Assembly: GCA_963764715.1 (NCBI GenBank)
Contig: CAVXTP010000022.1
Location: 275,735 to 339,734, forward strand
DNA: 64,000 bases
Source of the DNA: an uncultured Acidobacteriota bacterium
GTDB taxonomy: Bacteria; Acidobacteriota; Thermoanaerobaculia; UBA5066; Gp7-AA6
Direction of reading: 5' to 3'
Shown here one piece after another: positions 12,780-59,787 of this stretch. The position numbers and the translations under genes are program-made. Positions within the stretch are counted from its first letter, which is position 1. Each line of letters starts with the position of its first letter. The notes beneath the pieces were generated by a model. The model was not told the origin of the DNA, did not search any database, and saw nothing but the letters and a program-made list of their open reading frames with translations.

Positions 12780-12836
12780 AATTTGCTAAGATCCGGGGCG
12801 CTGATTCGTCAGACGCTCACAAGGCAGGGGGAAGCA

Positions 12837-14078: not shown

Positions 14079-14094
14079 CGGCGCCGCGTCTCCC

Positions 14095-15246: not shown

Positions 15247-15301
15247 GGGCGGGGCTCGTCCCCGCCCTCAGGCGCCGAAGGACAGGCACAAGGCCCGCCC
15301 C

Positions 15302-19945: not shown

Positions 19946-21475
19946 GTGGCGGTCGGGACCGGTCGCTGGCGCACCCTCGGGGCGGGCGCCGTTTCGGGGA
20001 TCCTCTTCGCCCTGGCCTTTCCGCCGTTCGGCTGGGTCGTCCTCCTCCCGCTCGCCTTGATCCCCTGGATCGTCGCGCTCTCCGTCGAAGAGAGCCGCAC
20101 GCGGGCGCTCTTCTCCGGCGTCGTCTTCGCCTTCGCCTACTGGTGCCTCTCGATCCGGTGGATCGCCTACGTCGTGACCGTGTACGGGGGACAGAGCGGG
20201 GTCATGGGGATCGTGAGCCTCGGGCTGACCGCGGCGATCCTGTCGCCGCCCTTCGCGCTGGTGGGCTGGGGCATGGTCGCCGTCGCCCGTCCGGGGCGGG
20301 GCGCGCGTCTCGCGGTCTTCCCGCTGCTGTGGGTCGCGGGAGAGCACCTGCGCACGATCTTCGCCGCTGGATTTCCGTGGAACCTGACGGCGCACGCGCT
20401 CTACCGGCACCCCGTCTGGCTCCAGTCGGCGTCCGTCTGGGGGGTCTACGGCGTCGGGGCCGCCGTCGCGGCCGTCTCGGCGCTGCTCGCCCGGGCCGCC
20501 CGGACGCGCCGGCTTCGGCCCGCCGTCATCGCGGCCGGCCTCGTCCTGGCGTTCGGCGTCTTCGGAGCGATGCGGCTCGGCCGCCCCGGGGAGGCGGGGC
20601 CGGAGCTCCCGGTGGCGCTGCTCCAGCCCAACCTGACGGAGGAGGACCGGTCGACGTCCCGCTCCCGGGTCGACGGCTACCTCGCCGTCCTCGCCCAGCT
20701 CGACGAGGCCGCGCGCCGCGGCGCGGAGCTTCTCGTCGTCCCCGAGTCCACGCTGCCGATCACCTGGCAGGGAAGCGAACGCCTGCGAAGCGATCTCGGC
20801 GCGATCGCCGCGCGCGGCCCGATGATCCTCTTCAACGACTTCGAGGAGGAGAGCGAGGAGCGCTACTTCAACGTCGCGCGGCTCCTGGACCGGAACGGCC
20901 TCGCCGGGCCGCCGTACCGCAAGGTGCACCTGGTGCCCTTCGGCGAGTACGTGCCGCTGCCGCGGCTCTTCTTCTTCGTCCGGAGGATCTCGCGGGCCAT
21001 CGGCGAGTTCACCCCGGCGCCGGGCCCGGTGCTCCTGAGGAGCGGGCCGGTCGCGATCGGCGTCGGCGTCTGCTACGAGATCATCTATCCGTCGCTCGCG
21101 CGCCGCGAGGTCGCCGACGGCGCCAACCTGCTGGCGACGGTCTCGAACGATTCCTGGTACGGGCGGGGCGGCGCGCAGCAGCAGCACTTCGCCGGCGCCC
21201 TCCTGCGCTCGGTCGAGACGGAGCGCTACCTCGTGCGGGCCGCGATCACGGGGATCTCGGGGATCGTCGATTCCCGGGGCCGGATCCTCGCCGAATCCCG
21301 GCCGGACGAGAAGGCCATCGTGTTCGGACGGGTGCGGCTCGAAACGGCGATGACGCCGTGGACGCGCTGGGGCCATCGGCTTCCGGCCGTCGCCGACGCC
21401 GCCGCGCTCGCCGTGCTAATCTTCGGCCTCGCGCGCGCCGGACGCGGCCGCCCGCGACCCATGACCTCCGCATGA
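19946..21475 (+). CDS. lnt: apolipoprotein N-acyltransferase
   Basis: 509 aa; N-terminal multi-TM domain plus C-terminal CN-hydrolase domain (E-K-C triad region VGVCYE); GTG start. Confidence 0.85.
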   Translation: MAVGTGRWRTLGAGAVSGILFALAFPPFGWVVLLPLALIPWIVALSVEESRTRALFSGVVFAFAYWCLSIRWIAYVVTVYGGQSGVMGIVSLGLTAAILSPPFALVGWGMVAVARPGRGARLAVFPLLWVAGEHLRTIFAAGFPWNLTAHALYRHPVWLQSASVWGVYGVGAAVAAVSALLARAARTRRLRPAVIAAGLVLAFGVFGAMRLGRPGEAGPELPVALLQPNLTEEDRSTSRSRVDGYLAVLAQLDEAARRGAELLVVPESTLPITWQGSERLRSDLGAIAARGPMILFNDFEEESEERYFNVARLLDRNGLAGPPYRKVHLVPFGEYVPLPRLFFFVRRISRAIGEFTPAPGPVLLRSGPVAIGVGVCYEIIYPSLARREVADGANLLATVSNDSWYGRGGAQQQHFAGALLRSVETERYLVRAAITGISGIVDSRGRILAESRPDEKAIVFGRVRLETAMTPWTRWGHRLPAVADAAALAVLIFGLARAGRGRPRPMTSA

Positions 21476-22594
21476 CCGAACGCGACGATCTCGTCTCCGC
21501 TCTCGGGGCCGCCTCGGAGCGCCTGCTGGCGCTTCGCGGCTATCTTTGATCAGGACGCCGCGCGGAGCGCGCTCGACGCCCTGAGGGAGAAGGCCGCCGC
21601 GCCCGACTTCTGGTCGCGGCCGGAGGAGGCCCAGGAGAACCAGCGTCAGACCCGGGGGCTCGAAAAGAAGATCGAGAGCGTGAAGCGTCTCGACGATCTT
21701 CGGAGCGAGCTCGAGGCCTTCGCCGAGCTCCTCGGCGAAGGCGAGCCGGCCGACAAGGAGGCCCGGGAATCGCTCGCGGCGGCGACGTCGTTCGCCGACG
21801 AGCTCGAGCTCGCGGTCAAGATGGGCGCGCCCGAGGACGCGAAGAACGCGTGGATGTCGATCCACGCCGGCGCCGGCGGGACGGAGTCCCAGGACTGGGC
21901 CGAGATGCTCCTCCGGATGTACATGCGCTTCGCCGAGTCGCGCGGCTGGAAGGCCGAGCTCATCGACCGGCAGGACGGCGAGGAGGCGGGCATCAAGAGC
22001 GCCACGCTCCACATCGTCGGCGACCACGCCTACGGGTACCTCCGGGGCGAGATGGGCGTCCACCGCCTCGTCCGGATCTCGCCCTTCGACGCGGCGCAGC
22101 GCCGGCACACCTCGTTCGCGTCCGTCTACATGGCCCCCGAGATCGACGACGACATCGAGATCGAGGTCGCCGACAAGGACATCCGCGTGGACACCTATCG
22201 CTCGAGCGGCGCCGGCGGACAGCACGTCAACGTCACGGACTCGGCCGTGCGCATCACCCACCTGCCGACGGGGATCGTCGTGACCTGCCAGAACGAGCGC
22301 AGCCAGGGCCGCAACCGCGAGATGGCGATGCGGGTCCTCAAGGCCCGCCTCTACCAGAAGGCCCTCGACGAGCGCCGCGCCGACGAGGAGAAGCGCGCCG
22401 GAGAAAAGAAGGCGATCGAGTGGGGAAGCCAGATCCGTTCGTACGTCCTCCACCCCTACCGCATGGTCAAGGACCACCGCACGGGCTTCGAGAGCGGCGA
22501 CACGGACCGCGTGCTCGACGGGGGCCTGACGCCCTTCGTGGAGGCCTACCTGAAGTCGGCGGCGGACGGCAGCCGCGCCCGTGCCTCCTCCTGA
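21472..22594 (+). CDS. prfB: peptide chain release factor 2, programmed +1 frameshift: join(21472..21546,21548..22594)
   Basis: Frame 1 MTERDDLVSALGAASERLLALRGYL then in-frame TGA within CTT TGA; +1 frame continues DQDAARSALD... through SPF and GGQ (SGAGGQHVNVTDSAVRITH) motifs; ATG overlaps lnt stop (ATGA). Confidence 0.9.
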
Positions 22595-28377: not shown

Positions 28378-28932
28378 ATGGGTAGACTGGGTCTCGTGCG
28401 GCGAGCCTGGTCGGCCATTCCCGCGATCGTCCTGGCGGCGGGCGCAGCCGCGTGCCGGAAGAACGAGCCCGGGCGACTCGATCCCGTTCAGGCGATCCGC
28501 AGCCGCGTCGAGCCGGCTTTCCGTGCGCCGGCGGACGGGCGCCTGACCCAGGCCCAGCTCGACAAGTACTTCAAGGTCCGACGCGCGGCCCGAGGCGCCA
28601 CCTCCGACGCCGACGCGGCGCGGGGCGTCGGCGTCGATCCGGCCGAGTTCGACTGGATCCGGGGGCGGATCATCGAGGCCCTCGCGGTGCTCGACGCGCG
28701 GCGGGTCGCCGAAGGGGGCCTCGAGAGCTACGCGCGGGCGATCGCGTCGCTGCGGGCGGCCCGCGAGTCGGCCGCCGATTCGAAGACGGCGGCCCGCATC
28801 GACGCGGAGATCGCGGCGCTCGAGCGCGAGCGCGCGACGCTCCGCCGCCCCGACCTCGCGGCCCCGGCGGCCGTCGCGAACGCCGCGCGCGTCGAGGCGA
28901 GGCGAGCGGAGATCGAGGCGCTGGGTCCGTGA
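28378..28932 (+). CDS. putative lipoprotein (lipobox LAAGAAAC)
   Basis: 184 aa, signal peptide followed by Cys; Ala/Arg-rich helical body. Confidence 0.5.
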   Translation: MGRLGLVRRAWSAIPAIVLAAGAAACRKNEPGRLDPVQAIRSRVEPAFRAPADGRLTQAQLDKYFKVRRAARGATSDADAARGVGVDPAEFDWIRGRIIEALAVLDARRVAEGGLESYARAIASLRAARESAADSKTAARIDAEIAALERERATLRRPDLAAPAAVANAARVEARRAEIEALGP

Positions 28933-29975
28933 CGCCCGTCGAGCGTTACCTCGCCGTGGAGATCGAGGCGGGCTCGTTTCCCGGGGCTTGCGCGCTCGTG
29001 GGCTCGGGCGAGCGCGTGCTCGCGGAGGCGGCCGCGGGGCGGGCCGCGGTCGAGCCCGAGCCCGTCGCGGCGACTCCCGCCACGCTCTTCGATCTCGCGA
29101 GCCTGACGAAGCCGCTGTGCGCCGCGGCGCTCGCGGCGGCGGCGGGGCGCGCGCTCCCGCTCGACGCTCCGCCGGGACGGTTCCTCCCGGAGTGGAAGTC
29201 CCTGCGGTTCGACGGCATCACGATCGAGCGGCTGCTCACCCACACGTCGGGGTTGGCGGCCTGGCTCCCGCTCTACGTCTTCGGCGAAGGTGCGGCCGCC
29301 TACCGCCGCACGCTCGCCGGCATCGAGCCAGAGGCCGCTCCCGGGGAGCGGGTCATCTACAGCGACCTGAACATCCTGCTGCTGACCGAGATCCTCGAGA
29401 GGATCTTTGCCGCCCCGATCGACCGGGCCTTCGAGGATCTCGTCGCCCGGCCGGCGGCGTCGGCCGCCGTCTTCCGCCCTTCGGACCCGGCCGCAACCGC
29501 CGCGACGGAACGCGCCGACCAATTCGAGCGGGCGATGGTCGCGTCCCGCGGCCTCGCGTACCCGCGATTCCGGGAGGGCGTCGTGCGGGGCGAGGTCCAC
29601 GACGGCAACGCGTTTCGCCGGGGCGGCGTCTCGGGACACGCCGGGCTCTTCGCGACGGCGCGGGACGTCTGGGCGCTCGCCCGTCCGTGGCTCGACCCGG
29701 CGCGGCGGGAGCTCACGCGCGACCGGACCCCCGAGCTCGCCGAGGCGAGGGGCCTCGGCTGGCAGGGGCGGCGGGGAGCGGGCTCGGCGATCCCCGCGAT
29801 GTCGGAGCAGAGCTTCGGCCACACCGGCTTCACCGGGACGTCGGTCTGGATCGATCCCGAGCGGGACCTCGTCGCGGTCCTGCTGACGAACCGGATCCAC
29901 CCGGAGGTCCGGGAGATCCCGTTCAACGAGGTCCGGCAGCGCTTTCACGAAGCCGTCTGGGAGGCGTTCGCCTGA
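28929..29975 (+). CDS. serine hydrolase, beta-lactamase/PBP4-like family (class C type)
   Basis: GTG start overlapping upstream stop (GTGA); S-x-x-K active site SLTKP; C-terminal HTGFTGTSVWIDPERDLVAVLLTN block. Confidence 0.75.
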   Translation: MTPVERYLAVEIEAGSFPGACALVGSGERVLAEAAAGRAAVEPEPVAATPATLFDLASLTKPLCAAALAAAAGRALPLDAPPGRFLPEWKSLRFDGITIERLLTHTSGLAAWLPLYVFGEGAAAYRRTLAGIEPEAAPGERVIYSDLNILLLTEILERIFAAPIDRAFEDLVARPAASAAVFRPSDPAATAATERADQFERAMVASRGLAYPRFREGVVRGEVHDGNAFRRGGVSGHAGLFATARDVWALARPWLDPARRELTRDRTPELAEARGLGWQGRRGAGSAIPAMSEQSFGHTGFTGTSVWIDPERDLVAVLLTNRIHPEVREIPFNEVRQRFHEAVWEAFA

Positions 29976-30016
29976 GGCCGGGGCCCCGCCGGCGCTGAGG
30001 TAAACTCGCCGGCTCT

Positions 30017-31201
30017 ATGGCGCAATCCAACGGCGTTTTCATCCTCGACGGGGCGCGGACCGCGATGGCGGAGTACAACGGCGCTTTCGCCGACGTCACG
30101 GCGATCGACCTCGGCGTCCACGCCGCCCGGGAGGCCCTGCGCCGCAGCGGCGTCGAGCCCGGGCAGATCGACCACGCGATCTTCGGCAACGCCCTGCAGA
30201 CCTCGGGCGACGCGATCTACGGCGCCCGGCACGTGGCGCTCAAGGCGGGCGTGCCGAAGGAGGTCCCGGCGCTGACCGTCAACCGCCTGTGCGGGTCCGG
30301 CTTCGAATCGATCGTGCAGGGGGCGCACCGCATTCTCCTCGGGGAGGCGAAGACGGTGCTCGCGGGCGGGATGGAGAACATGTCCCAGGCGCCGCACGTC
30401 ATCCGGGGCGCCCGCAAGGGCTTTCGGCTCGGCCAGGGGCAGCTCGAGGACTCGCTGATGGTCGCCCTGCTCGACTCCTACTGCGGCCTCTACATGGCCC
30501 AGACGTCCGACCGCGTGGCCGGCAAGTACGGCATCACCCGGGCCGCGCAGGACGCCTATGCGCTTTCCTCGCAGCAGCGGGCGGCCGCGGCCTGGGACTC
30601 CGGGCGCCTCGCCGAGGAGGTCGTCCCCGTCGAGGTCAAGGCCGGGCGCAAGACCGTCCGCGTCGAGCGGGACGATCACCTGCGTCCGGACTCGACGCTC
30701 GAGGGCCTCGCCGGATTGCCCCCGTCGTTCGGGAAGGACGGGTCGGTGACCGCGGGGAACGCCTCGGGCATCGTGGACGGCGCCGCGGCGGTGGTCGTCG
30801 CCTCGGAGGATGCGGCGCGCGGCCGGAAGCCGCTCGGCCGCCTCGTGTCCTGGGCGGTCGTCGGCGTGGAGCCGGAGCTGATGGGTCTCGGTCCGGCGCC
30901 GGCGGCGCGCGCGGCGATCCAGAGAGCGGGGCTGTCCCAGAACGACATCGGCCTCTGGGAGATCAACGAGGCCTTCGCCGGCCAGATCCTCGGCGTGGTC
31001 AAGGAGCTCGGGCTCGACCTCGAGAAGTTGAACGTCAACGGCGGAGCGATCGCGCTCGGCCATCCCCTGGCCGCGACGGGCACGCGCTGCACGCTGACCC
31101 TGCTGAAGGAGATGCGGCGCCGCGGCGTGCGTTACGGGCTGGCCGGCGCCTGCATCGGCGGCGGGCAGGGCATCGCCGTCGTCGTGGAGTCGGCCGCGTA
31201 G
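30017..31201 (+). CDS. acetyl-CoA C-acetyltransferase (thiolase II)
   Basis: 394 aa; catalytic Cys block VNRLCGSGFESI, C-terminal NVNGGAIALGHPLAATG and GLAGACIGGGQG. Confidence 0.9.
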   Translation: MAQSNGVFILDGARTAMAEYNGAFADVTAIDLGVHAAREALRRSGVEPGQIDHAIFGNALQTSGDAIYGARHVALKAGVPKEVPALTVNRLCGSGFESIVQGAHRILLGEAKTVLAGGMENMSQAPHVIRGARKGFRLGQGQLEDSLMVALLDSYCGLYMAQTSDRVAGKYGITRAAQDAYALSSQQRAAAAWDSGRLAEEVVPVEVKAGRKTVRVERDDHLRPDSTLEGLAGLPPSFGKDGSVTAGNASGIVDGAAAVVVASEDAARGRKPLGRLVSWAVVGVEPELMGLGPAPAARAAIQRAGLSQNDIGLWEINEAFAGQILGVVKELGLDLEKLNVNGGAIALGHPLAATGTRCTLTLLKEMRRRGVRYGLAGACIGGGQGIAVVVESAA

Positions 31202-31222
31202 TCGGCGAGCGGGGATCGGGCG

Positions 31223-31561
31223 ATGAACTGGACCGAGCGGATCCTCGAGTTCCCGGTGCGGGCGGCGGCGGTCGACGACTTCCTGCGGGACCTGCGGGCC
31301 CGGGGAGCCGGGGACCTGAACGCCGTCCTGACGACGTTGAACGAGGGCGGCCTGTGCCGGGAAGTCGTGCGCCGCTGGACCGAGAGCGGCTGGATTGTCG
31401 TCGCGCCGAACACGCCGCTGCTGGCCCTGACCGGCCCGGCCTTCGAGCCGGAGCTGACGCTCTCGGACTTCTGCAGCGACATCGAGATCCTGGAGACGCC
31501 GGCCCTCGCGGGCCCGGAGGCGTCGACGGGGGAGGGGACGGAGGACCATGGCGATTCGTAA
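31223..31561 (+). CDS. hypothetical protein (112 aa) inside thiolase/hbd operon
   Basis: G/C-biased third positions; 3' end overlaps hbd start. Confidence 0.45.
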   Translation: MNWTERILEFPVRAAAVDDFLRDLRARGAGDLNAVLTTLNEGGLCREVVRRWTESGWIVVAPNTPLLALTGPAFEPELTLSDFCSDIEILETPALAGPEASTGEGTEDHGDS

Positions 31562-32402
31562 GGTCGGTGTTCTCGGCGCGGGCCTCATGGGCTCGGGCAT
31601 CGCCGAGGTGTGCGTGAAAGCGGGCTACGACACGGTGGTCCGCGAGGTCAGCGACGAGCTCGTCAAGAAGGGGCTCTCGCGCATCGAGGGCTCGCTCGGA
31701 AAAGCCGTCGAGAAGGGCAAGCTTCCGGCGGCCGACCGCGACGCCGCCTGGAAGCGGCTCCACTCGACGACGAAGCTCGAGGACCTCGCCGATTGCGACC
31801 TCCTGATCGAGGCGATCGTCGAAAACCTCGACGTCAAGAAGGAGACGTACCGCGCGCTCGACGCGGCGTGCAAGCCGGAGACGATCTTCTGCTCCAACAC
31901 CTCGTCGCTGACGATCACCGAGATGTCCGCGGCGACCAAGCGACCGGACCGGTTCGCGGGACTCCACTTCTTCAACCCGGTCCCCGTGATGAAGCTCGTG
32001 GAGGTCGTCCGCACGATCGCGACGTCCGAGGAGACCTTCGCGACGGTCTTCGAGTTCGCGAAGTCGCTCGGCAAGGAGCCGATCCGTACGCACGACAACT
32101 CCGGCTTCATCGTCAACCGTCTCCTCGTCCCGTACCTGCTGGACGCGGTCCGGGCCCTCGAGGAGGGCGTCGGCTCGCGCGAGGACATCGACAAGGGCAT
32201 GGAGCTCGGCTGCGGCCACCCGATGGGGCCGCTGAAGCTCCTCGACTTCGTCGGTCTCGACACGACCTACGCGATCGCCGAGATCATGTTTGCCGAGTAC
32301 CGGGAGAAGCGCTTCGCGCCGCCCCCGCTGCTGAAGCGCATGGTCCTCGCCGGGCGCTACGGGAAGAAATCCGGGCGAGGCTTCTACGAGTACGGAGGGT
32401 AA
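31548..32402 (+). CDS. hbd: 3-hydroxybutyryl-CoA dehydrogenase (3-hydroxyacyl-CoA dehydrogenase, NAD-binding)
   Basis: VGVLGAGLMGSGIAEV Rossmann; HFFNPVPVMKLVEVV; GFIVNRLL. Confidence 0.9.
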   Translation: MAIRKVGVLGAGLMGSGIAEVCVKAGYDTVVREVSDELVKKGLSRIEGSLGKAVEKGKLPAADRDAAWKRLHSTTKLEDLADCDLLIEAIVENLDVKKETYRALDAACKPETIFCSNTSSLTITEMSAATKRPDRFAGLHFFNPVPVMKLVEVVRTIATSEETFATVFEFAKSLGKEPIRTHDNSGFIVNRLLVPYLLDAVRALEEGVGSREDIDKGMELGCGHPMGPLKLLDFVGLDTTYAIAEIMFAEYREKRFAPPPLLKRMVLAGRYGKKSGRGFYEYGG

Positions 32403-32403
32403 C

Positions 32404-33183
32404 GTGAGCGACTTCGTTCTCGTCGAGACTTCGGACCGCGTCCGCACGCTGACCATCAACCGGCCGGACAAACTGAACGCGCTGAACGCGGAGGTCATGG
32501 CGGCCCTCGACGGCGCGCTCGACGCGGCCCGGGACGACACCTCGGTCGGCGTGGTGATCATCACGGGCTCGGGCGAGAAGTCCTTCATCGCGGGCGCCGA
32601 CATCGGCGAGCTCTCGAAGCTCACGCCCGTGGAGGGCCGGGAGCACGCGCGCCGGGGCCAGGCCGTCCTCGCGAAAATCGAGGCGCTCGGCAAGCCCGTC
32701 ATCGCCGCCGTCAACGGCTACGCGCTCGGCGGGGGATGCGAGCTCGCGCTCGCCTGCACGATCCGGATCGCCTCCGAGAACGCGCGCTTCGGACAGCCCG
32801 AGGTGAAGCTCGGAATCCTGCCGGGCTACGGCGGCTCGCAGCGGCTGGCCCGCATCGTCGGCGAGGGCCGGGCGATGCAGCTCTGCCTGACGGCCGAGCC
32901 GATCGACGCGGCGGAGGCCTGGCGGATCGGGCTCGTCAACAAGGTCGTCCCCCCGGGCGAGGCGGTCGCGGCCGCCCGCGCCATGGCCGCGCAGATCCTC
33001 GCGAACGGCCCGGTCGCCTGCCGGTACGTTCTCGAGGCGGTCCACCGCGGCCTCGACCTGCCCCTTCCCGACGGCCTCCTGCTCGAGGCCACGCTCTTCG
33101 GGCTCTGCGCCGCCACCTCCGACATGAGGGAGGGGATGACCGCGTTCCTCGAGAAGCGGCCGGCGCGGTTCACGGGGAAGTAG
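32404..33183 (+). CDS. enoyl-CoA hydratase (crotonase)
   Basis: GTG start; oxyanion-hole and catalytic blocks FIAGADI and NGYALGGGCELALACTIRIAS. Confidence 0.85.
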   Translation: MSDFVLVETSDRVRTLTINRPDKLNALNAEVMAALDGALDAARDDTSVGVVIITGSGEKSFIAGADIGELSKLTPVEGREHARRGQAVLAKIEALGKPVIAAVNGYALGGGCELALACTIRIASENARFGQPEVKLGILPGYGGSQRLARIVGEGRAMQLCLTAEPIDAAEAWRIGLVNKVVPPGEAVAAARAMAAQILANGPVACRYVLEAVHRGLDLPLPDGLLLEATLFGLCAATSDMREGMTAFLEKRPARFTGK

Positions 33184-33192
33184 GAGCGCGGC

Positions 33193-34365
33193 ATGGGCAT
33201 CGAGCTCGTCAGCGCCTGTGTGTTCTGCGCCGGGATGCTCCTCGGGATGGACCTGTCGCCCCGCCCTGGCCTCGGGGGGGAGCTCGGCTTCTCCTACTCG
33301 ACGCTCGCCCGGCGCTACGACATCGGAACCACCGTCGACACCTCGGACGTCACGCCGAAATTCGTCCTCGCCGGCATGGGCTTCGCGCGCTTCGCGCCGG
33401 ACGGACTCGGCGCCGGGACGCCGGAGTTCGAGTGGAGGGCCCGGGTGGCGTTCGGAACGTCCCACGACGAGCAGCAGCGGCTGGAGCAGCCGCAGCTCGG
33501 CCTCCCGCAGGTGCTCTCCAACGGGACCGGGCGCGCCGAGAACTTCGCCCTGCTCCTGCGGCTCCCGGTGACGAAGGCGGACTCGGTGGAGCTCGCCGGC
33601 GAGGGCCGGAACAACCGGTCGACCGACGTCATCAACATCGGCGGCGAGAACCAGGAGCTCACCGAGGCCCGGGACCTCTCGTCCCAGCGGATCGACGTCG
33701 CGGCCGGCTGGCGTCATCGCTGGCCGGGCCTCGAGGCCGCGGCGGCCTTCCGCTGGACGAAGCCGTCGGGCTACAACGCGACGGCCGGATCCTTCCAGGA
33801 CGCCTCCGGACCGATCTACGGCGGCGAGGGCGAGGTCCGCTGGAAGCCCGGTCCGTGGACCTTCGTCGCCCACGCGGAGTACATGAGCGGGAACATCGAC
33901 GTCCACCGGGAGAGCCTGCCCGACTTCCATGACCGCGACTCCGAGCTCAAGGCCGCGCTCCAGGCCTACCGGCTCTCGGCCGGCTACTCCTGGACGTGCT
34001 CGGACCTGATGCTTTCGGCGACGTACGAACGGCAGCAGCTCCCGTACGTCTCGCTCGCCGTTCTCGGGACGGAGACGGTGGCGTTCGACGGAGGCTACGA
34101 TCCTTACTCCGACAACGAGGAGGTCTACTGGGACCTCGCCTTCCGGTACGCCTTCAGCCCGGCGATCCGGGCGCGCATCGGCGCCCGACTGGCCTGGGGC
34201 GACGAGACCGTGACCCTGACCGACTCGGGCGGCGTGCGGCCGACCCGGATCCTCGACGTGGCGCGCCGCGGCATCTTCGGCGGGAGCCTCTCCGATCCCC
34301 TCGGATCGCCCGAGTTCGCCTTCTTCATCGGCGCGGACTTCTCGATCGGCGCGCCGAAGCCGTGA
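33193..34365 (+). CDS. hypothetical protein, possibly outer-membrane beta-barrel
   Basis: 390 aa; Gly/Tyr/Ser-rich alternating pattern; function not recognised. Confidence 0.45.
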   Translation: MGIELVSACVFCAGMLLGMDLSPRPGLGGELGFSYSTLARRYDIGTTVDTSDVTPKFVLAGMGFARFAPDGLGAGTPEFEWRARVAFGTSHDEQQRLEQPQLGLPQVLSNGTGRAENFALLLRLPVTKADSVELAGEGRNNRSTDVINIGGENQELTEARDLSSQRIDVAAGWRHRWPGLEAAAAFRWTKPSGYNATAGSFQDASGPIYGGEGEVRWKPGPWTFVAHAEYMSGNIDVHRESLPDFHDRDSELKAALQAYRLSAGYSWTCSDLMLSATYERQQLPYVSLAVLGTETVAFDGGYDPYSDNEEVYWDLAFRYAFSPAIRARIGARLAWGDETVTLTDSGGVRPTRILDVARRGIFGGSLSDPLGSPEFAFFIGADFSIGAPKP

Positions 34366-34403: not shown

Positions 34404-35657
34404 TTGAACCCGCCGGACTCCGACCTCATCTACGACTGGAACCGCGCCGGCGGCGCGGTTTCCCCGAAGCGCGGCCGGGTCGAGATCGACGACGAGACAC
34501 TCCGGGACGGCCTCCAGTCCCCCTCGGTCAAGAGCCCCTCGATCGACCAGAAGATCCGGATCCTGCACCTGATGGAGTCGCTCGGGATCGACTCCGCGGA
34601 CATCGGTTTGCCGGGGGCCGGCCCCCACGTCGTCGACACGGTGACGCGCCTCGCCCAGGAGATCGTCATCGGCAAGATGAAGATCCGGCCCAACTGCGCG
34701 GCACGGACCGTGGCGGCGGACATCCTGCCGATCATCGAAATCTCGCAGAAGGTCGGGATCCCGATCGAGGTCTCGTGCTTCATCGGGTCTTCGCCGATCC
34801 GCCAGTACGCCGAGGACTGGGACTTCGAGCGGATGCTCCGCCTGTCCGAGGACGCGGTGGCCCTCGCCGTGCGGGAGGGCCTACCGGTCATGTACGTCAC
34901 CGAGGACACGACGCGCGCGCACCCCGACCACGTCCGCGCGATGTACACGACGGCCATGCGGGCCGGCGCCGGACGGATCTGCGTCTGCGACACCGTCGGG
35001 CACGCGACGCCGAACGGGGTCCGCAACCTCGTCGCCTTCGTCTGCCAGCTCGTCGAGGAAGTGAGCCCGTCCGTCAAGGTCGACTGGCACGGCCACCAGG
35101 ACCGGGGCCTCGGCGTCACGAACGCCCTCTGGGCCCTGGAGGCCGGAGCGCACCGCGTCCACGCCTGCGCTCTCGGGATCGGGGAGCGCGTCGGGAACAC
35201 GCCGATGGACCAGCTGCTCGTCAACCTGCAGCTGCTCGGCTGGATCGACCGCGACCTGACCCGGCTCAACGACTACTGCGCGGCGGTCTCCGAAGCGACC
35301 GGCGTGCCGATCCCCGACAACTACCCGGTCGTCGGCCGGGACGCATTTCGCACCGGGACCGGCGTCCACGCCGCGGCCATCATCAAGGCCCGCAAGAAGG
35401 GCGACGAGTGGCTGGCGGACCGCGTCTACTCGGGCGTCCCCGCCTCGATGGTCGGACGCCACCAGGTGATCGAGGTCGGGCCCATGAGCGGCCTCTCGAA
35501 CGTCCAGTGCTGGCTGGAGAGCCGGGGAATCGAGGCCCGGCCGGACCTCGTCGACGCGATCTTCCGCCTCGCCAAGGAGAGCGACCACATCCTCGGCGAC
35601 GCCGAGATCCTCGACGTCGTGCAGCGGCTGACTCCGGAAACCGCGCCGCTGCGGTAG
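34404..35657 (+). CDS. DRE-TIM metallolyase, 2-isopropylmalate/homocitrate/citramalate synthase family (catalytic domain only)
   Basis: LRDGLQS and HGHQDRGLGVTNALWALEAGA blocks; proposed TTG start with GGGAG RBS. Confidence 0.7.
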   Translation: MNPPDSDLIYDWNRAGGAVSPKRGRVEIDDETLRDGLQSPSVKSPSIDQKIRILHLMESLGIDSADIGLPGAGPHVVDTVTRLAQEIVIGKMKIRPNCAARTVAADILPIIEISQKVGIPIEVSCFIGSSPIRQYAEDWDFERMLRLSEDAVALAVREGLPVMYVTEDTTRAHPDHVRAMYTTAMRAGAGRICVCDTVGHATPNGVRNLVAFVCQLVEEVSPSVKVDWHGHQDRGLGVTNALWALEAGAHRVHACALGIGERVGNTPMDQLLVNLQLLGWIDRDLTRLNDYCAAVSEATGVPIPDNYPVVGRDAFRTGTGVHAAAIIKARKKGDEWLADRVYSGVPASMVGRHQVIEVGPMSGLSNVQCWLESRGIEARPDLVDAIFRLAKESDHILGDAEILDVVQRLTPETAPLR

Positions 35658-35666
35658 GGGCGCCGC

Positions 35667-36644
35667 CTGCGCCGCGCGAACCGGAAGGGAAAGTCGGACG
35701 AGCCGGCGGCGGCGGCCCGCTCGTCGCGCTTTCTCGAACGCGACCTCCCGACCTACCTCGACCACCTGTCCGTCGAGAGGGGCCTTTCGCCCGCGAGCGT
35801 CGCGGCGTACCGCGGCGACCTGACGGCCTTCGGCGAGTTCCTCGCGGGGCGGCGGGTCGAGGCCGCGCGGGCTTCGCGCGCCGACCTGGGGCGTTACCTG
35901 GCGCACCTGCGGGCCCGCGACCTTTCGTCGCGCTCGACCTCGCGCGCGCTGTCCGCGATCCGCGGCTTCTTCGCGTTCGCCGCCGCGCACCTCGGCTTTC
36001 CGGAGGACCCGACGGCCGACCTCGCCAATCCGCGCATCGGGCGGGCGCTTCCGAAGAGCATCGGGGAAAGTGAGGTCGAGGCGCTGCTCGCGGCGCCCGA
36101 CGTGCGGGGCCCCCTCGGCCTGCGCGACCGCGCGATGCTCGAGCTCCTCTACGCCTCGGGGCTCCGCGTGTCGGAGATCGTGAACCTGCCGCGCGAGGCC
36201 ATCGACCTCGAGGCCGGGATCCTTCGGGTGACGGGCAAGGGCGGCAAGGAGCGGCTCGTCCCCTTCGGCCGCTCGGCCGCGCGCTGGCTCGCGCGGTACC
36301 TCGAGGCCGCGCGGCCGCCGCTCGACCGGCGCCGCTCCGCGCACCTCTTCCTTTCGTCGCGGGGCGCGGCGATGACCCGCCAGCGCTTCTGGCAGCTCAT
36401 CGAGGCCTACGGCCGCAAGGCCGGGATCCGCACGCGCCTGACGCCCCACGTTCTCCGCCATGCCTTTGCCACGCACCTGCTGGAGCACGGCGCGGACCTC
36501 CGCGCCCTCCAGATGATGCTGGGCCACGCCGACATCGCCACGACCCAGATCTACACGAGCGTCTCCCGCGGCCGGCTCCGCCGGGTTTACGACGAGTTCC
36601 ACCCCCGGGCGAAGGGCCGGGGTCGTGCGAAGATGGGGCGGTGA
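35667..36644 (+). CDS. xerD: site-specific tyrosine recombinase XerD/XerC family; N-terminal core-binding domain lacks a canonical in-frame start (CTG at 35667 proposed)
   Basis: C-terminal catalytic R..HxxR..Y (LRHAFATHLLEHGADLRALQMMLGHADIATTQIYT); N-terminal FLERDLPTYLDHLSVERGLSPASVAAYRGDL is in the same frame straight after the upstream TAG, with no ATG/GTG/TTG before 36102. Confidence 0.7.
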   Translation: MRRANRKGKSDEPAAAARSSRFLERDLPTYLDHLSVERGLSPASVAAYRGDLTAFGEFLAGRRVEAARASRADLGRYLAHLRARDLSSRSTSRALSAIRGFFAFAAAHLGFPEDPTADLANPRIGRALPKSIGESEVEALLAAPDVRGPLGLRDRAMLELLYASGLRVSEIVNLPREAIDLEAGILRVTGKGGKERLVPFGRSAARWLARYLEAARPPLDRRRSAHLFLSSRGAAMTRQRFWQLIEAYGRKAGIRTRLTPHVLRHAFATHLLEHGADLRALQMMLGHADIATTQIYTSVSRGRLRRVYDEFHPRAKGRGRAKMGR

Positions 36645-36700
36645 CGACCCGGTCCAGAACGGCGGAATGTAGCGGCCCGAGGGCCTGTTCTGCGTGGGGC

Positions 36701-37471
36701 ATGCCCTCCCTTCGCCTCCGCTGGGTCGCCGTGTGTCTCGGCGGCCTCCTCGGGGCGGGGTCGGCCGCACGGGCCGAGCTCATCGTCTTCGAGGACGGGC
36801 GGGTCGTGAAGGCCGCGGGTTTCGAGCTCCATTCGGACGAGCTCGAGATCCGGCTCCCCGGCGGCGGGAGCTACCGCGTCGACCTCGCGCGGGTGGACCG
36901 CATCGTCGATGACGAGGTCGTCGTGGATGCGGTCGTGGTCGAGCCGAGCGCCCTCGAGGCCGGCGGAGCCTTCGACATCTCGTACCGGCCCGAGCGCAAG
37001 CCCCTCTTCTCGACGCCCTACGACGCGCTCATCGAGCGGGAGGCGAAGGCCTTCGACATCGACGCGGCCCTCGTCTCCGCGCTCATCCGGGCCGAGTCCA
37101 ACTACGAGCCGCGCGCCGTCTCGCGCAAGGGCGCGCGCGGCCTGATGCAGCTGATGCCGGCGACCGCGCGGAGACTCTCGGTGCAGAAGCCCTTCGACCC
37201 CTCCGCGAACGTGAAGGGCGGCGTCCGCTACCTCCGGGAGCTCGTCGACCGTTTCGGTCCGCGTCCCGACCTGGTGCTGGCGGCGTACAACGCGGGCGAG
37301 GGGGCCGTCGTGGCGTATGGCGGCGTGCCGCCGTACCGGGAGACGGTGGCCTACGTCAACCGCATCCTCCGCTGGGCCCAGCCGGTGCCGAACGCCGGCG
37401 CGACGCGCCCCGGGAATTCCCCCGCCGCCCCGGCTTCGAGCGCCGGAACGACCCTCGAGACGCGCAACTAG
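36701..37471 (+). CDS. lytic transglycosylase (SLT domain), secreted
   Basis: Signal peptide; ES..E catalytic block AESNYEPRAVSRKGARGLMQLMP and AYNAG. Confidence 0.8.
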   Translation: MPSLRLRWVAVCLGGLLGAGSAARAELIVFEDGRVVKAAGFELHSDELEIRLPGGGSYRVDLARVDRIVDDEVVVDAVVVEPSALEAGGAFDISYRPERKPLFSTPYDALIEREAKAFDIDAALVSALIRAESNYEPRAVSRKGARGLMQLMPATARRLSVQKPFDPSANVKGGVRYLRELVDRFGPRPDLVLAAYNAGEGAVVAYGGVPPYRETVAYVNRILRWAQPVPNAGATRPGNSPAAPASSAGTTLETRN

Positions 37472-37480
37472 AGCGGCGGC

Positions 37481-37831
37481 TCAGTCCGCGGGGGCGATCG
37501 ACTCGACGAAGATCGTGTCGCCCTCGACCCGTCCCTCGATCCGCACGCGCCGGGCGGCGAACTCCGCGGGCGCGTCCTGATCGTCGAGCTGGTAGAACTT
37601 CGTCGTGGCGACGTCGATGAAGCCGTAGGGCGCGCCCTTCGCGACGCACTTGAGCGTGCACTCGCGGTCGTCCCGCCCCATCCCGCCCCGGGCGATCATC
37701 GGAGCGTGGTACGGGCCGCACTCCGCGTCGGTGATCCAGCCGAGGAAGGTCTCGGCGGCGGCCGGCGCGGCGGTGGCCAGGGCCAGGGCCAGGGCGACGG
37801 CGGCGAGGAGGATCGAGCGCTTCATCGACAT
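37481..37831 (-). CDS. small secreted Cys-containing hypothetical protein
   Basis: Signal peptide MKRSILLAAVALALALATAAPAAA; 4 Cys. Confidence 0.5.
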   Translation of the reverse strand: MSMKRSILLAAVALALALATAAPAAAETFLGWITDAECGPYHAPMIARGGMGRDDRECTLKCVAKGAPYGFIDVATTKFYQLDDQDAPAEFAARRVRIEGRVEGDTIFVESIAPAD

Positions 37832-37879
37832 TCGTTGGATGCCGCCGGGTGGCGGACGATACATGGCCGATCGCCGTCG

Positions 37880-40021
37880 TTACGGCCGGACGGTCGGCCG
37901 GGGGACCGGCGCCGGCTCGCCGGCCGCGCGTTTGGCGGCCGCGATGGCCGCGCGGAGCTTCTCGGAGAGACGCTGGATCTGCAGGTCGGCGAATTCTCCC
38001 CGGCCGCCGACGAGGGCCTCGCGGATCGCCGGCAGCGTTTCGGCCTCGTACGTCGGCAGCGGGGCATAAACCAGGTGGCGGAACCAGGGCCGGCCGGGGA
38101 TCCCCGGCGGATCGAGGAGCGCCCGTTCGAGCGAGAGGAGCCAGGCGTTGGCGTCGCGCAGCGCCGTGAATCCCATCCGGTCGGCCCCGACCCGCGCGGC
38201 GATCGCCTTCTGCGCGGCGCCGGCGCTCTCGCTCCAGGCCCGGCCGAGGGAGGCGAGCTCCGAGAGGCCGCGGGCATGGGTGGCGGCGGCGTCGAGGTCC
38301 TTGAGCTCTTCGGCGTACCGCGCGATCTCGCGGCCGTAGGCGGCCGCGTCGAAGGGAAGAGTGTCGGCGTTGGCGAAGCGCAGCGCCAGCATGCCCGCGT
38401 ACTTCGCCATCGCCGCGTGGTAGACGAAGCCCGGATCGCCCTGGGTCGCCATCCAGCGGTGCGTGTCGTAGACGGAGTGATAGACGCCGTAGGGGCCGTC
38501 GAAGACGAGGTCGGTGGAGGCGATGCCGAGGTGATTGAAGAACACGGTGTAGTCGGAGCCGCTTCCCAGGACCGCCACGGGCAGCTTCTCGGACGCGTCG
38601 GCCGATTCCCGCCGTTCGGTCCAGGCGTCGGCGAGGGTCTTGCCCGGGGTCTCGGGGTCCGGAAAGTCCCGGGCGAGCTCGCGCAGGGCCGTGAACAGGA
38701 GCGGCGAGGCCGAGGCCGCGAAGCGCTTCCCGAGGGCCGAGGCGTCGACGTTGATGCAGACCACCGCGTTCTGCTTGAGGTCGCGCTCGTACTGCTCGCC
38801 CCACTCGGTCGAGCCGGTCAGCGTGTACTCCTCGGCGTCCCATTCCCCGATGACGATCGTCCGCCGGGGCCGGAAGCCCTCGGCCGCGAGCTTTCCGAGG
38901 GCCCGCCCGAGGGCGAGCATGGAGGCCGTTCCCGACGAAGGATCGACGCCCCCGTAGACCCAGGCGTCGAAATGGTTCGAGAGCAGGACCTTGCGTCCCG
39001 GCTCGTCGGTGCCCCGGAGAGTCGCGACGACGTTCCGGATGGTCCTCTTCTCGCGCGTGTTCTCGATCTTGAGGGCGACGCGCACCGGGCCGGGGCCGAC
39101 GTTGTAGGTCCGGGTCACGGCGAGACCCTGCCAGGTCGAGCCCGGGACCGCCGGTCCGCGAAGCCGCTCGAGGATCTCGGCCGCGTCGCGGGCCGAGAGG
39201 GGCATCATGGGGATCTTCGGCAGGATCTCCGACTCGGACGCGGGGATGCGCCGCGCCTCGGGCGTCGACGCCCAGCCGGGCGTCAGCGGATCGCCGGGCA
39301 CGATGAAGTCGTAGACGTTGGAGCCGCGCTGGACGTGGGAAAGCGGTCCCCAGGGCCCGTCGGGATAGGCGGGGCCCTGGAACCACCCGTCGTCGACTGG
39401 GTCCGAGTAGACCAGGATCGCCAGCACGCCGCGCTTCTCGGCCTCGAGCGACTTTCCTCCGCGGTAGCCCCCGAAATACCGGGCGAGCGCGATCTTTCCG
39501 CGCACGTCGATGCCCATCCTGGCGAGCCGGTCGTAGTCTTCGGCGCTTCCGCGGTTGACGTAGACGACCTCGCCGACGACCTCGGCCGACGGCGAGTACG
39601 CGTTCCACGGAGGGGCGGCCTCGGGCACGTCGGTGTCGGGGTCCTCGGGGATCGGCAGCTCGCCCCGGGCGAGGGCCACGCCGGGCTCGCCGACGATCTC
39701 GAGCCGCGCACTGCGCGGATAGGACAGGAGGACCTCGTAGGACGGCATCTCCACCGACCAGCCGGCCTTCCGGTACTCGGCAGCCAGGTACTCGGCGACG
39801 CGGGCGTTGCCGTCGGTCCCGGCGACGTGCGGCGTCCGGGTCACCTCGCGGTGGATTTCCTCGCAGTCCTGCGGCCGCGCGAGCTCGAGGAGGCGCCGTT
39901 CGTATTCGCGCTGCCAGGCGGAGCGCTTCGGCGCGAACCCGGTCAGCTTCGGCGAAGGCGCCGGCCCCGCCGACAGCGCCAGGACGGCCGCGAGGGGAAG
40001 AAACGCCCGGGCGCGCTTCAC
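37880..40021 (-). CDS. M28-family peptidase of the transferrin-receptor/PSMA (glutamate carboxypeptidase II-like) type, secreted
   Basis: GTG start with GGAGG RBS, overlapping the permease stop (GTGA); PA domain, M28 Zn ligands (HFDAW, GEWDAEEY), C-terminal TfR dimerisation domain. Confidence 0.8.
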   Translation of the reverse strand: MKRARAFLPLAAVLALSAGPAPSPKLTGFAPKRSAWQREYERRLLELARPQDCEEIHREVTRTPHVAGTDGNARVAEYLAAEYRKAGWSVEMPSYEVLLSYPRSARLEIVGEPGVALARGELPIPEDPDTDVPEAAPPWNAYSPSAEVVGEVVYVNRGSAEDYDRLARMGIDVRGKIALARYFGGYRGGKSLEAEKRGVLAILVYSDPVDDGWFQGPAYPDGPWGPLSHVQRGSNVYDFIVPGDPLTPGWASTPEARRIPASESEILPKIPMMPLSARDAAEILERLRGPAVPGSTWQGLAVTRTYNVGPGPVRVALKIENTREKRTIRNVVATLRGTDEPGRKVLLSNHFDAWVYGGVDPSSGTASMLALGRALGKLAAEGFRPRRTIVIGEWDAEEYTLTGSTEWGEQYERDLKQNAVVCINVDASALGKRFAASASPLLFTALRELARDFPDPETPGKTLADAWTERRESADASEKLPVAVLGSGSDYTVFFNHLGIASTDLVFDGPYGVYHSVYDTHRWMATQGDPGFVYHAAMAKYAGMLALRFANADTLPFDAAAYGREIARYAEELKDLDAAATHARGLSELASLGRAWSESAGAAQKAIAARVGADRMGFTALRDANAWLLSLERALLDPPGIPGRPWFRHLVYAPLPTYEAETLPAIREALVGGRGEFADLQIQRLSEKLRAAIAAAKRAAGEPAPVPRPTVRP

Positions 40022-41391
40022 GCCGTCCTCCGCGGGCCGCGGCGCATCCGGTAGTAGACGGGCAGGCCGATGAGCAGGATCCCGATGCCCGCGAGTGTCT
40101 CCCGCGGCTGCGTGCGCACGGTATTGACCGCGAGCGCCACCGTGCTCGCGACGAAGACGAGCGGAACGACGGGATAGCCCCAGCAGCGGTAGGGACGGGA
40201 AAGGTCCGGTCGCTTGCGCCGAAGCACGAAGAGGGCGATTCCCGTGGCTGCGTAGGCGAGGATCACGAAGAAGGTGGCGTAGGTGTAGAGCTGGTCGTAG
40301 CGCCCCGAAAGACAGAGCAGGGACATCCACACGGCCTGGACGACGATCCCGAAGGACGGCGTCTTGAAGCGGGGATGAATTCGGGCGAACGGCTTCGGAA
40401 AGAGCCCATCCTCGGCGAGAGCGTAAACGACGCGTGGCGCCGGAACCAGGCCGGCCGACGTGCATCCGGCCGCGGCGGCCGTCACGGCCAGGGCGATGAC
40501 GAAGGCGGCGCCGCCCCCGAAGAGGCGGGTCGCGGCGAGGGCGGCGGGCTCCCCGACGTTCGCCATCTCGGCCGGCGGGATCGCCTTGAGGAAGACGGCG
40601 TTGGCAGCGACGTAGAGAAGTGTCAGGAGGCCCGTCCCGAGGATGAGGGCGAGCGGGAGGTTCCGGCGCGGGTTGGCGACTTCGCCCGCGACCGCCACGA
40701 TCTCGTTCCAGCCGTAGTAGGTCCAGAAGATCGCGACGAGGGCGGTGCCGATGCCCGCGAAGGTCAGCGCCGCAACCGGCCCCGGGGCCCCCGCGGCCGC
40801 CTCCGGCCGGGGCGCGAACGCGCCGCCGACCGCGATCCACAGCAGGGCGAGGAGGATCATCGAGGTGAAGACGCCCTGGATGCGGGCCCCCTCCTTGACC
40901 CCGACGTAATGCGTCGCCGAGAGCACCAGGGTCAGCGCGATCGCGACGAGCTGCGCCGCGTTGATCGGGACCGGCCCCACCGTGAAGAGCACGTTCGCGC
41001 TCGAAAGCGACGGGAAGAAGACCGAGAGGTACTGGGCGAAGCCGATGGCCACGGCCGCGTCGGACCCGATGATGATCACCCAGAAGGCGACCCAGGCGTA
41101 GAGGAACGCCGGGAGCTCGCCGAAGGCCTCCCGGAAGAACACGTACATTCCGCCGGCCTGCGGCATCATGGCGCCCATCTCCGCATAGACGAGCCCTCCG
41201 GCGATCGCGAGCAGCCCGCCCACGATCCAGAGGCCGAGGATCCAGTGCCCGTCGGGAACGGCCTTCGCGATCCCCGCGGGCGTCAGGAAGATGCCCCCAC
41301 CGACCGCGAGCCCGATGACGAGGAGGCTCGTGTCCCAGAGTCCGAGGCCCCGGGCGAGCTTGCCCCGGCTCTCGCCGGTCGACTCGCTCAC
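40018..41391 (-). CDS. APC-superfamily amino-acid permease
   Basis: 457 aa from GTG 41391 ([21 protein letters not shown]...); 12 TM; overlaps kce stop. Confidence 0.8.
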   Translation of the reverse strand: MSESTGESRGKLARGLGLWDTSLLVIGLAVGGGIFLTPAGIAKAVPDGHWILGLWIVGGLLAIAGGLVYAEMGAMMPQAGGMYVFFREAFGELPAFLYAWVAFWVIIIGSDAAVAIGFAQYLSVFFPSLSSANVLFTVGPVPINAAQLVAIALTLVLSATHYVGVKEGARIQGVFTSMILLALLWIAVGGAFAPRPEAAAGAPGPVAALTFAGIGTALVAIFWTYYGWNEIVAVAGEVANPRRNLPLALILGTGLLTLLYVAANAVFLKAIPPAEMANVGEPAALAATRLFGGGAAFVIALAVTAAAAGCTSAGLVPAPRVVYALAEDGLFPKPFARIHPRFKTPSFGIVVQAVWMSLLCLSGRYDQLYTYATFFVILAYAATGIALFVLRRKRPDLSRPYRCWGYPVVPLVFVASTVALAVNTVRTQPRETLAGIGILLIGLPVYYRMRRGPRRTA

Positions 41392-42212
41392 GCGGCGGCG
41401 GGGATGCGCAGGATCTGCCGCGCCTCCTCGACCGAGGCCGGCTCGCGGCCCACCTCCCGGGCGATCCGGACGATCCGCTCGACGAACCGGGCGTTGGAGT
41501 CGGCGAGCTCGCCCTTGCGGTAGTAGATGTTGTCCTCGAACCCGACGCGCACGTGGCCTCCCATCGCGATCGCCATCGTGGCCATCGCGGTCTGCCGCCG
41601 CCCGATTCCGGCGACGGTCCAGGTGCATCCCGCCGGAATCGAGCGGGCGAAGTGCGCCAGGTTCTCGGCGGTGGCCGCGGCGGCCCCCGGAACGCCGAGG
41701 ACGAAGTCGAAGTGGGCGGGCGGCTGGAGCTGCCCCTTCGAAAAGAGCATGTCGGCCGTGGCGAGCATGCCGACGTCGAAGATCTCGAGCTCGGGCGTGA
41801 TGCCGAACTTGCGGATGCGGGCGAGGATCGTGCGGATCGTCGGGAGCGAGTTCTCGAAGATCTCGTCGCCGAAGTTGCAGGTCCCGAGCGTCAGGGTCGC
41901 CATCTCGGGCTTGAGCTCGAGCGCCGCGATGCGCTCCTCGACGCCCATCCCGACGGCCCCGCCGGTCGAGAACTGCTGGAGGATGGGGCAGCGGGCGCGG
42001 ATCGCGGACGAGTAGGCGCGGAACGTCTCGAGGTCCTGCGTCGGCGTGCCGTCCGGGCGCCGGCCGTGGACGTGGCCGATCGTCGCCCCCGCGGCGTGGG
42101 CCCGGGCGTACTCCTCGCCGACCTCGTCGGGCAGGAGGGGAAGATGCGGCTGCTGCTCCCGCATCACTTCGGCGCCGACCCCGGCGACCGTGATCAGGAG
42201 GGCGTCGCTCAC
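41388..42212 (-). CDS. kce: 3-keto-5-aminohexanoate cleavage enzyme (BKACE/DUF849 family)
   Basis: 274 aa TIM-barrel BKACE family; adjacent to kamDE. Confidence 0.75.
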
Positions 42213-42592
42213 CGCGGGGCCCGCTGCTTGTCGAGTGGAACGACGCAGGTTCCGGTGGCGCGGGCGACGACCAGGGGCGGGTCGAGGACCTGCGCGGCCG
42301 ATCCCCCGGAGGGCGCGATGACCTTGCGCGCCTCGAACCGAATCTGGCGGGACGTCCGGCCCGCGCCCGTCAGCTCGGCCTCGATTTCGAGGTAGTCGCC
42401 GCCGTGGACGGGAGCCAGGAACTCGACCGACGCATAGGCCCGAAAGAGGCCTTCGTCGCCGTCGCGCCGCACGAGGAGCTCCGTCGCGGCGTCGCCGAAG
42501 AGCTTGAGGACGAAGGCGCCGTCGACGAGGCCGCCGCCGTAGTGCGCCTGCTCGGCCCCGACCCGGAGGCGGAGCAGCACCCGGTCGCTCAC
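42209..42592 (-). CDS. kal: hot-dog fold protein, candidate 3-aminobutyryl-CoA ammonia-lyase
   Basis: 127 aa from a GTG overlapping kamE stop; size, fold and position between kamE and kce match Kal of lysine fermentation operons. Confidence 0.5.
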
Positions 42593-45837: not shown

Positions 45838-45841
45838 GCGC

Positions 45842-58464: not shown

Positions 58465-58468
<4 letters not shown>
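57395..58468 (-). CDS. PLP-dependent aminotransferase, class I/II
   Basis: 357-aa tail of the 2159-aa artefact ORF; NPHNPSG and SLTKSFGLASLRCGW (PLP-Lys) blocks; ATG overlaps permease stop. Confidence 0.75.

Positions 58469-59787
<1,319 letters not shown>

Follow-up and report, generated by a model that had tools for sequence, protein, structure and literature searches.

A class-wide conserved thiolase, 3-hydroxybutyryl-CoA dehydrogenase and crotonase block in Thermoanaerobaculia, and the lysine-fermentation cluster beside it

We analysed a 64,000-nucleotide stretch of DNA (the window) from an uncultured Acidobacteriota bacterium of the class Thermoanaerobaculia (GenBank assembly GCA_963764715.1, contig CAVXTP010000022.1, positions 275,735 to 339,734). 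Its plus strand encodes a thiolase (thl), a 3-hydroxybutyryl-CoA dehydrogenase (Hbd, gene hbd) and a crotonase (Crt, gene crt), and 8.2 kb separate the crt stop from kce, a gene of a lysine-fermentation cluster. The explanation that we favour, with a probability of roughly 0.72, is that the three enzymes constitute the terminal short-chain beta-oxidation trio of a co-directional operon conserved throughout Thermoanaerobaculia, and that they serve as a general acetyl-CoA-forming module and not as a dedicated part of a lysine island. The operon is of a well-known kind, ordinary and intact. Its minor novelties are three uncharacterised companions, namely an orphan protein of 112 residues (u112), a predicted FadL-like barrel of 390 residues without a sequence family (u390) and a LeuA-like enzyme belonging to an Acidobacteriota-wide clade.

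The three enzymes and the reactions they would catalyse

Genes were called by third-position GC content (GC3), the window being about 71% GC. The six plus-strand genes listed in an initial annotation of this DNA were all recovered: thl (30017-31201), u112 (31223-31561), hbd (31548-32402), crt (32404-33183), u390 (33193-34365) and the gene of the LeuA-like enzyme (34404-35657). GC3 amounted to 0.93-0.97 in the five open reading frames (ORFs) from thl to u390, and in the frame plot the third positions of the LeuA-like gene were biased likewise. Intergenic gaps along the plus-strand genes range from -14 to 41 nt. A promoter and terminator scan of the window gave no promoter and a single terminator-like site, located on the minus strand and none on the plus strand, while shuffled sequences gave more. 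Co-transcription of the plus-strand genes is probable.

The names given to the three enzymes in the initial annotation were borne out by Pfam, NCBIfam and catalytic motifs. The thiolase (acetyl-CoA C-acyltransferase) matched Thiolase_N (E 1e-81) and Thiolase_C (E 1e-47) in Pfam, scored 456 bits against TIGR01930 (cutoff 240) and possesses the intact catalytic residues Cys92, Asn317, His349 and Cys379. Its best match in the PDB was the human mitochondrial 3-ketoacyl-CoA thiolase (ACAA2; 4c2j, 424 bits), compared with about 355 bits for biosynthetic acetoacetyl-CoA thiolases. By sequence, the enzyme therefore appears closest to the degradative ACAA2 type. ACAA2 itself is a degradative thiolase of broad range.

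Hbd matched Pfam 3HCDH_N (E 2e-66) and 3HCDH (E 9e-36) and exceeded the cutoff of NF005875, the 3-hydroxybutyryl-CoA dehydrogenase subfamily (395 bits vs 319). Its top PDB matches 6aa8, 6hrd and 4kue were all deposited as 3-hydroxybutyryl-CoA dehydrogenases. The crotonase was recognized by Pfam ECH_1 (E 1e-70); its best NCBIfam family, the short-chain-enoyl-CoA hydratase PRK05809, was hit with 323 bits, under the cutoff of 394, and its best PDB match, 5z7r, was likewise deposited as a short-chain-enoyl-CoA hydratase. The GxGxxG motif, Ser117 and His140 of Hbd are intact, and Glu113 and Glu133 of the crotonase are present. We take the top PDB relatives of both proteins to be clostridial butyrogenic enzymes. 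Judged by NCBIfam and by these relatives, Hbd and Crt look short-chain. All three enzyme families of short-chain beta-oxidation, together with their catalytic residues, were thus found. Compared with clostridial Hbd and Crt and with mitochondrial thiolase T1 (ACAA2), the three folds and catalytic residues are the same (6aa8, 5z7r, 4c2j), whereas the order thl-u112-hbd-crt includes an orphan small protein and the host belongs to an Acidobacteriota class.

In the degradative direction, which we infer for this block, the crotonase would hydrate crotonyl-CoA to (S)-3-hydroxybutyryl-CoA, Hbd would oxidize the latter to acetoacetyl-CoA with NAD+, and the ACAA2-like degradative thiolase would convert acetoacetyl-CoA to two acetyl-CoA. 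The chemistry of this route, as the initial annotation had drawn it, is sound. The block would accordingly be a general sink for C4 acyl-CoA, with crotonyl-CoA possibly supplied by butyrate or fatty-acid oxidation, glutarate or lysine. In genomes with kce and kal, the crotonyl-CoA made by Kal would most obviously be channelled through it, and the acetyl-CoA spent by Kce would thereby be replenished (for the pathway, see PMC3149608). The acetoacetate released by Kce would not be handled by the thl/hbd/crt block. The proposal that the block completes the conversion of the Kce/Kal products would hold for crotonyl-CoA and not for acetoacetate; an acetoacetate-activating CoA-transferase was not found in the window.

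The block with and without the lysine-fermentation cluster

With the LeuA-like gene as the centre, 80 genome loci at species level (numbered with the prefix L) were collected, and the window proteins were mapped onto them by tblastn; 10 further Thermoanaerobaculia metagenome contigs were compared. About 90 related loci had readable flanks. Wherever the source was named, homologues of u112, u390 and the LeuA-like enzyme came from metagenome-assembled genomes of Thermoanaerobaculia (Acidobacteriota). Every Thermoanaerobaculia locus that reached far enough showed the same order, with TPR and STK genes on the minus strand followed by u184, a serine hydrolase gene, thl, u112, hbd, crt, a slot of variable content, the LeuA-like gene, xerD and an SLT lytic transglycosylase gene. 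About 75 genome loci and the 10 metagenome loci keep this order from u184 to SLT, across all clades of a five-gene neighbour-joining tree, and xerD and SLT follow the LeuA-like gene in all Thermoanaerobaculia loci.

The region 3' of SLT is found in three states. As in the window, it may carry a DUF5818 gene (not always present), an M28 peptidase gene and a permease gene followed by kce, kal, kamE, kamD, kamB and kdd. Alternatively, SLT is followed directly by a cyclase gene (and then u317), which in the window lies just past kdd, or it is followed by unrelated genes. In L042, L054, L062 and L074, 22-85 bp lie between SLT and the start of the cyclase gene, the whole 9.4-kb segment being cleanly absent, and the 10 metagenome contigs showed the same alternatives. 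The block from the M28 gene and permease through kce to kdd occupies the locus in about 60% of the genomes, and DUF5818, M28 and permease come and go with kce to kdd. Meanwhile, thl-u112-hbd-crt is kept in at least 19-24 genomes without the lysine cluster at the locus. Because the thl block is present with or without the cluster, it does not depend on the cluster at this locus.

This result bears directly on the initial annotation, which had joined the two blocks into one metabolic island on account of their proximity and had suggested comparative genomics as a check, naming a lack of co-conservation as the outcome that would speak against the island. Run at this locus, the comparison gave that outcome: the thl block was found in every Thermoanaerobaculia locus that reached far enough and the cluster in only part of the genomes. 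In addition, xerD and SLT intervene, and the two blocks lie on opposite strands. Since the conserved array mixes a serine hydrolase, xerD and a lytic transglycosylase, adjacency in Thermoanaerobaculia is not function-specific. Long heterogeneous arrays are syntenic across the class, so a distance of 8 kb is weak evidence of shared function, and the island appears as an attractive over-interpretation.

In the five-gene tree, one large clade carries the lysine segment; of the other clade, two subclades have it and the rest do not, a pattern for which Fitch parsimony requires about 3 changes. Because the kce and kamD identities to the window follow those of the genes around them, the cluster appears to be ancestral here, with several later losses, and does not look like a recent import. 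Nothing that would mark a mobile island was detected around it: there was no tRNA or Rfam element, no meaningful flanking repeat and no GC shift.

All genes of the cluster in the window lie on the minus strand: kce (41388-42212), kal (~42209-42586), kamE (~42589-43347), kamD (43344-44903), a kamB-like gene (~44932-45840) and kdd (45842-46888). NCBIfam cutoffs were exceeded by Kal (164 bits vs 160), KamE (334 vs 280), KamD (751 vs 600) and Kdd (226 vs 200), Kce stayed just under its cutoff (381.2 vs 382), and KamB reached 186 vs 210. kamA, an acetoacetate CoA-transferase and bcd/etf were not found among the GC3-filtered ORFs scanned across the window; these genes may reside elsewhere in the genome. 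The canonical cluster of Fusobacterium nucleatum and Clostridium sticklandii (kamA, kamDE, kdd, kce, kal, atoAD, thl, bcd) shares kamD, kamE, kdd, kce and kal with the present one, in which they lie 8-16 kb downstream, and has a thiolase nearby as well (PMC3149608). It should be pointed out that the window differs from it in having no kamA, acetoacetate:butyrate CoA-transferase or bcd/etf, that the crotonyl-CoA sink here would be oxidative (crt/hbd/thl) instead of reductive, and that the thiolase block is conserved independently of kce to kdd. A search of the literature on lysine fermentation in Thermoanaerobaculia returned nothing.

Before kce in window coordinates, a DUF5818 protein, an M28/PA/TFR-dimer peptidase and an APC amino-acid permease, all assigned by Pfam, are encoded at 37481-41391 on the minus strand. 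Two large M28-family peptidases flank the cluster (37880-40000 and 48689-50896, both on the minus strand), one of which carries PA and TFR-dimer domains, and a second APC permease is located at 58465-59787. The M28 peptidases and APC permeases suggest a neighbourhood for peptide and amino-acid scavenging.

Could thl, hbd, crt and u390 nevertheless form a single lysine-catabolic island with kce, kal, kam and kdd, the block being dedicated to turning Kce/Kal products into acetyl-CoA? The pathway logic is sound, the thiolase being step 8 of canonical lysine fermentation (PMC3149608). The blocks are neighbours in about 60% of the species-level genomes, apparently by ancestral adjacency, and u390 varies together with the cluster and was never seen without it. 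We consider such an island unlikely, as the block is unchanged in the genomes that lack the cluster at the locus, clean deletions included, as two unrelated genes and a change of strand separate the parts, and as kamA, the CoA-transferase and bcd/etf were not found in the window. The synteny on which the island leans extends equally to unrelated genes such as the serine hydrolase and xerD, and the u390 association amounts to just about 3 events.

Three points weigh against our preferred reading of a general module. The confinement of u390 to genomes with the lysine cluster hints at some coupling of both blocks; this co-variation, which is suggestive, is the sole observation in favour of coupling. 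The long-standing adjacency of the cluster and the thl block could still reflect selection. Finally, sequence does not fix the direction of flux, and the nearest solved relatives of Hbd and Crt are 3-hydroxybutyryl-CoA dehydrogenases and a short-chain enoyl-CoA hydratase.

The last point leads to the possibility that the block works in the biosynthetic direction, from acetyl-CoA via acetoacetyl-CoA and 3-hydroxybutyryl-CoA to crotonyl-CoA, and feeds butyrate fermentation or a reductive sink like clostridial thl/hbd/crt. The best matches of Hbd and Crt to solved structures are in line with it, all three reactions are reversible, and a known cultured member of Thermoanaerobaculia is an anaerobe. 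On the other hand, scans of the window and of the 20-kb loci revealed no bcd/etfAB, ptb/buk, CoA-transferase (including butyryl-CoA:acetate CoA-transferase) or polyhydroxyalkanoate synthase, and the thiolase is nearer to degradative ACAA2 than to biosynthetic thiolases. Compared with the clostridial butyryl-CoA synthesis (BCS) operon (crt-bcd-etfB-etfA-hbd), bcd and etfAB are missing between crt and hbd, and no acyl-CoA dehydrogenase or electron-transfer flavoprotein domain was detected in the window genes or the annotated relatives. A biosynthetic role is thus very doubtful.

About 60% of the examined species carry kamDE-kdd-kce-kal, a peptidase and a permease beside a universal operon leading from crotonyl-CoA to acetyl-CoA. 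For uncultured soil Acidobacteriota this makes a reasonable metabolic picture, which implies that the fate of lysine carbon is oxidative rather than butyrogenic.

The companions u112, u390 and the LeuA-like enzyme

u112 gave no match in Pfam or NCBIfam. Its gene overlaps the hbd start by 14 nt, as it does in both annotated relatives, L001 and L002. Nearly all loci have it between thl and hbd; in a few lineages it has been lost, leaving thl-hbd gaps of 9-56 nt (L054, L061 and L062). The 220 homologues are 105-120 aa long and acidic (isoelectric point 4.1-4.7), with 39 invariant positions including two Cys. About 85 residues make up their conserved core, after which comes an acidic tail that varies in sequence and ends in a semi-conserved H/D-G/D-D-S/T tip. 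The core (residues 1-85) is predicted to be winged-helix-like and the acidic tail disordered. Because of the low isoelectric point of the family, DNA binding is disfavoured. A profile search of 1.84e9 cluster representatives for remote homologues or fusions returned just 27 relatives, every one stand-alone. u112 is an orphan found in this lineage only, and its translation is coupled to that of hbd. With low confidence, we take it most likely to be a subunit of the thl/hbd/crt module that binds protein and has an accessory or regulatory role.

u390 likewise had no match in Pfam (Toluene_X included) or NCBIfam. Its AlphaFold2 model (pLDDT 83, pTM 0.83) is an all-beta barrel beginning at residue 26, predicted as 14-stranded and of the FadL/CymA/TodX type, and it shows no evident hatch or plug domain. 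u390 thus shares the predicted barrel fold with FadL, TodX and CymA, but differs from them in lacking a Toluene_X sequence match and, in the model, the N-terminal hatch. The initial annotation had called it a putative outer-membrane protein, with which the barrel agrees; we predict an accessory outer-membrane channel of the FadL/CymA type. As to its N-terminus (33193-33270), the first 25 residues resemble a signal peptide and are unusually conserved. G2, L5, V6, A8, C9 and C12 are invariant, forming a CxxC within a hydrophobic stretch, and an acidic residue replaces the basic n-region; Sec signal peptides do not typically look like this.

Between crt and the LeuA-like gene, the slot is empty (30-140 nt) or contains one u390 or two tandem u390 copies. 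In L047, L049 and L061 it encodes another protein, about 390-400 aa long and equipped with a signal peptide, and in L072, L075 and L078 it is occupied by radical-SAM and FAD genes. The tandem duplicates (L012, L027, L053, L064 and L079) are accompanied by a crt-to-LeuA-like gap of 2.5-2.9 kb, and these loci gave two tblastn matches with 47-61% identity. When u390 in the thl array was scored against the lysine cluster, both were present in 28 loci and neither in 19, while 4 loci had the cluster only and none had u390 only. According to Fitch parsimony, about 3 changes per trait underlie this pattern; because the evolutionary events are so few, the association is just suggestive.

Two bolder readings concern these proteins. 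u112 would be a new small scaffold or regulatory subunit whose winged-helix core and conserved acidic C-terminal tip dock onto the thiolase, Hbd or Crt, resembling in role, not in fold, the DUF35 protein of the archaeal thiolase/HMG-CoA-synthase complex, and u390 would be an outer-membrane channel dedicated to the uptake of lysine, beta-lysine or peptides and co-inherited with the lysine cluster. If this were true of u390, both blocks would be physically tied into one nutrient-acquisition system. We regard these readings as quite improbable.

The LeuA-like enzyme was assigned the frame 34404-35657, whose 417 aa equal the homologue lengths; the 432-aa and 553-aa ORFs of the naive ORF list are thereby superseded. 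HMGL-like is its sole Pfam domain (E 2e-42). The enzyme comprises a catalytic domain and a C-terminal subdomain without the LeuA_dimer regulatory domain; the lack of a regulatory domain had been noted in the initial annotation. No NCBIfam equivalog cutoff was reached, each being missed by a factor of at least 2 (best NF002085, 209 vs 517; TIGR02146, 184 vs 414). The short LeuA, homocitrate and citramalate synthases (6ktq, 2ztj/3a9i, NCBIfam Leptospira LeuA2) share with it the DRE-TIM barrel and C-terminal subdomain, and it keeps the metal ligands and the catalytic Glu and His motifs. The differences are an identity of only about 30% to solved homocitrate synthase (HCS) and isopropylmalate synthase enzymes, RDGLQ in place of RDGEQ/REGEQ, and the substrate pocket. 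Aligned to His72, Arg133 and Ser135 of Thermus thermophilus HCS are Ala (Asn in an alternative register), Met and Val.

The three HCS residues, in this numbering, are presumably ligands of the C5-carboxylate of 2-oxoglutarate. With Ala, Met and Val at the distal-carboxylate positions, homocitrate or Re-citrate synthase activity is unlikely, and this candidate assignment was dropped; no literature link for it was found either. The pocket residues suggest a hydrophobic 2-oxo acid as substrate, not 2-oxoglutarate or oxaloacetate.

The enzyme is at least 80% identical across Thermoanaerobaculia and 58-68% identical in lower-GC Acidobacteriota-type contigs (the metagenome contigs are L083-L162); one genome locus of this kind is labelled Blastocatellia. 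In such contigs, thl/hbd/crt never adjoins it. In 37 of 61 such loci it is immediately followed by a co-directional ArgE/DapE-family M20 deacylase gene, the two making up a conserved pair; the M20 partner gave generic ArgE/DapE-family matches alone, all below cutoff. The LeuA-like enzyme hence represents an Acidobacteriota-wide clade whose adjacency to beta-oxidation genes is lineage-specific synteny, and we therefore treat it as a separate housekeeping-type gene. Together with xerD and SLT it would make up a conserved housekeeping unit of its own.

That the enzyme is instead a functional member of the operon, condensing thiolase-made acetyl-CoA with a 2-oxo acid in the fashion of citramalate, isopropylmalate or Re-citrate synthase, is extremely improbable. 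Its gene is co-directional and begins 38 nt behind u390 or, in loci without u390, 30-140 nt behind crt, and the Claisen-condensing motifs RD, ED, HxH and GVH are retained. Against these features stand the variable slot that separates it from crt, its M20 partner and the absence of thl/hbd/crt beside it in the lower-GC loci, and a pocket that disfavours 2-oxoglutarate and oxaloacetate.

Flanking genes and other features of the window

Ahead of thl on the plus strand, u184 (28378-28932) encodes a protein of unknown function. L001-L079 and the metagenome loci of Thermoanaerobaculia share the gene order of the array from u184 to hbd (28378-32402). The serine hydrolase gene that follows (~28929-29975) is beta-lactamase/PBP4B-like: PBP4B-like and class C beta-lactamase matches were below cutoff, and homologues matched Pfam Beta-lactamase. 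On the 3' side, also on the plus strand, SLT (36641-37471) was assigned by Pfam SLT and xerD (~35667-36644) by TIGR02225 XerD (358 bits vs a cutoff of 330). The xerD frame is open from 35658 and the XerD match begins at about residue 26 of the frame, with no ATG, GTG or TTG before 36102. Either CTG at 35667 or another non-canonical start is needed, or this copy is N-terminally defective.

Two further loci of the window deserve mention. At 12783-16195, a serine-palmitoyltransferase-like alpha-oxoamine synthase (NF047600, 549 bits, below the cutoff of 640) adjoins an unknown 383-aa protein and a PAP2 phosphatase, which may constitute a sphingolipid-type lipid locus. The release factor 2 gene prfB (21472-22594, plus strand) contains a programmed +1 frameshift of the classical type. 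In frame 1, MTERDDLVSALGAASERLLALRGYL is followed by a stop at CTT TGA T (~21545), and the +1 frame goes on as FDQDAARSALD... into a 304-aa ORF (21680-22594), with the Pfam PCRF match starting at profile position 44.

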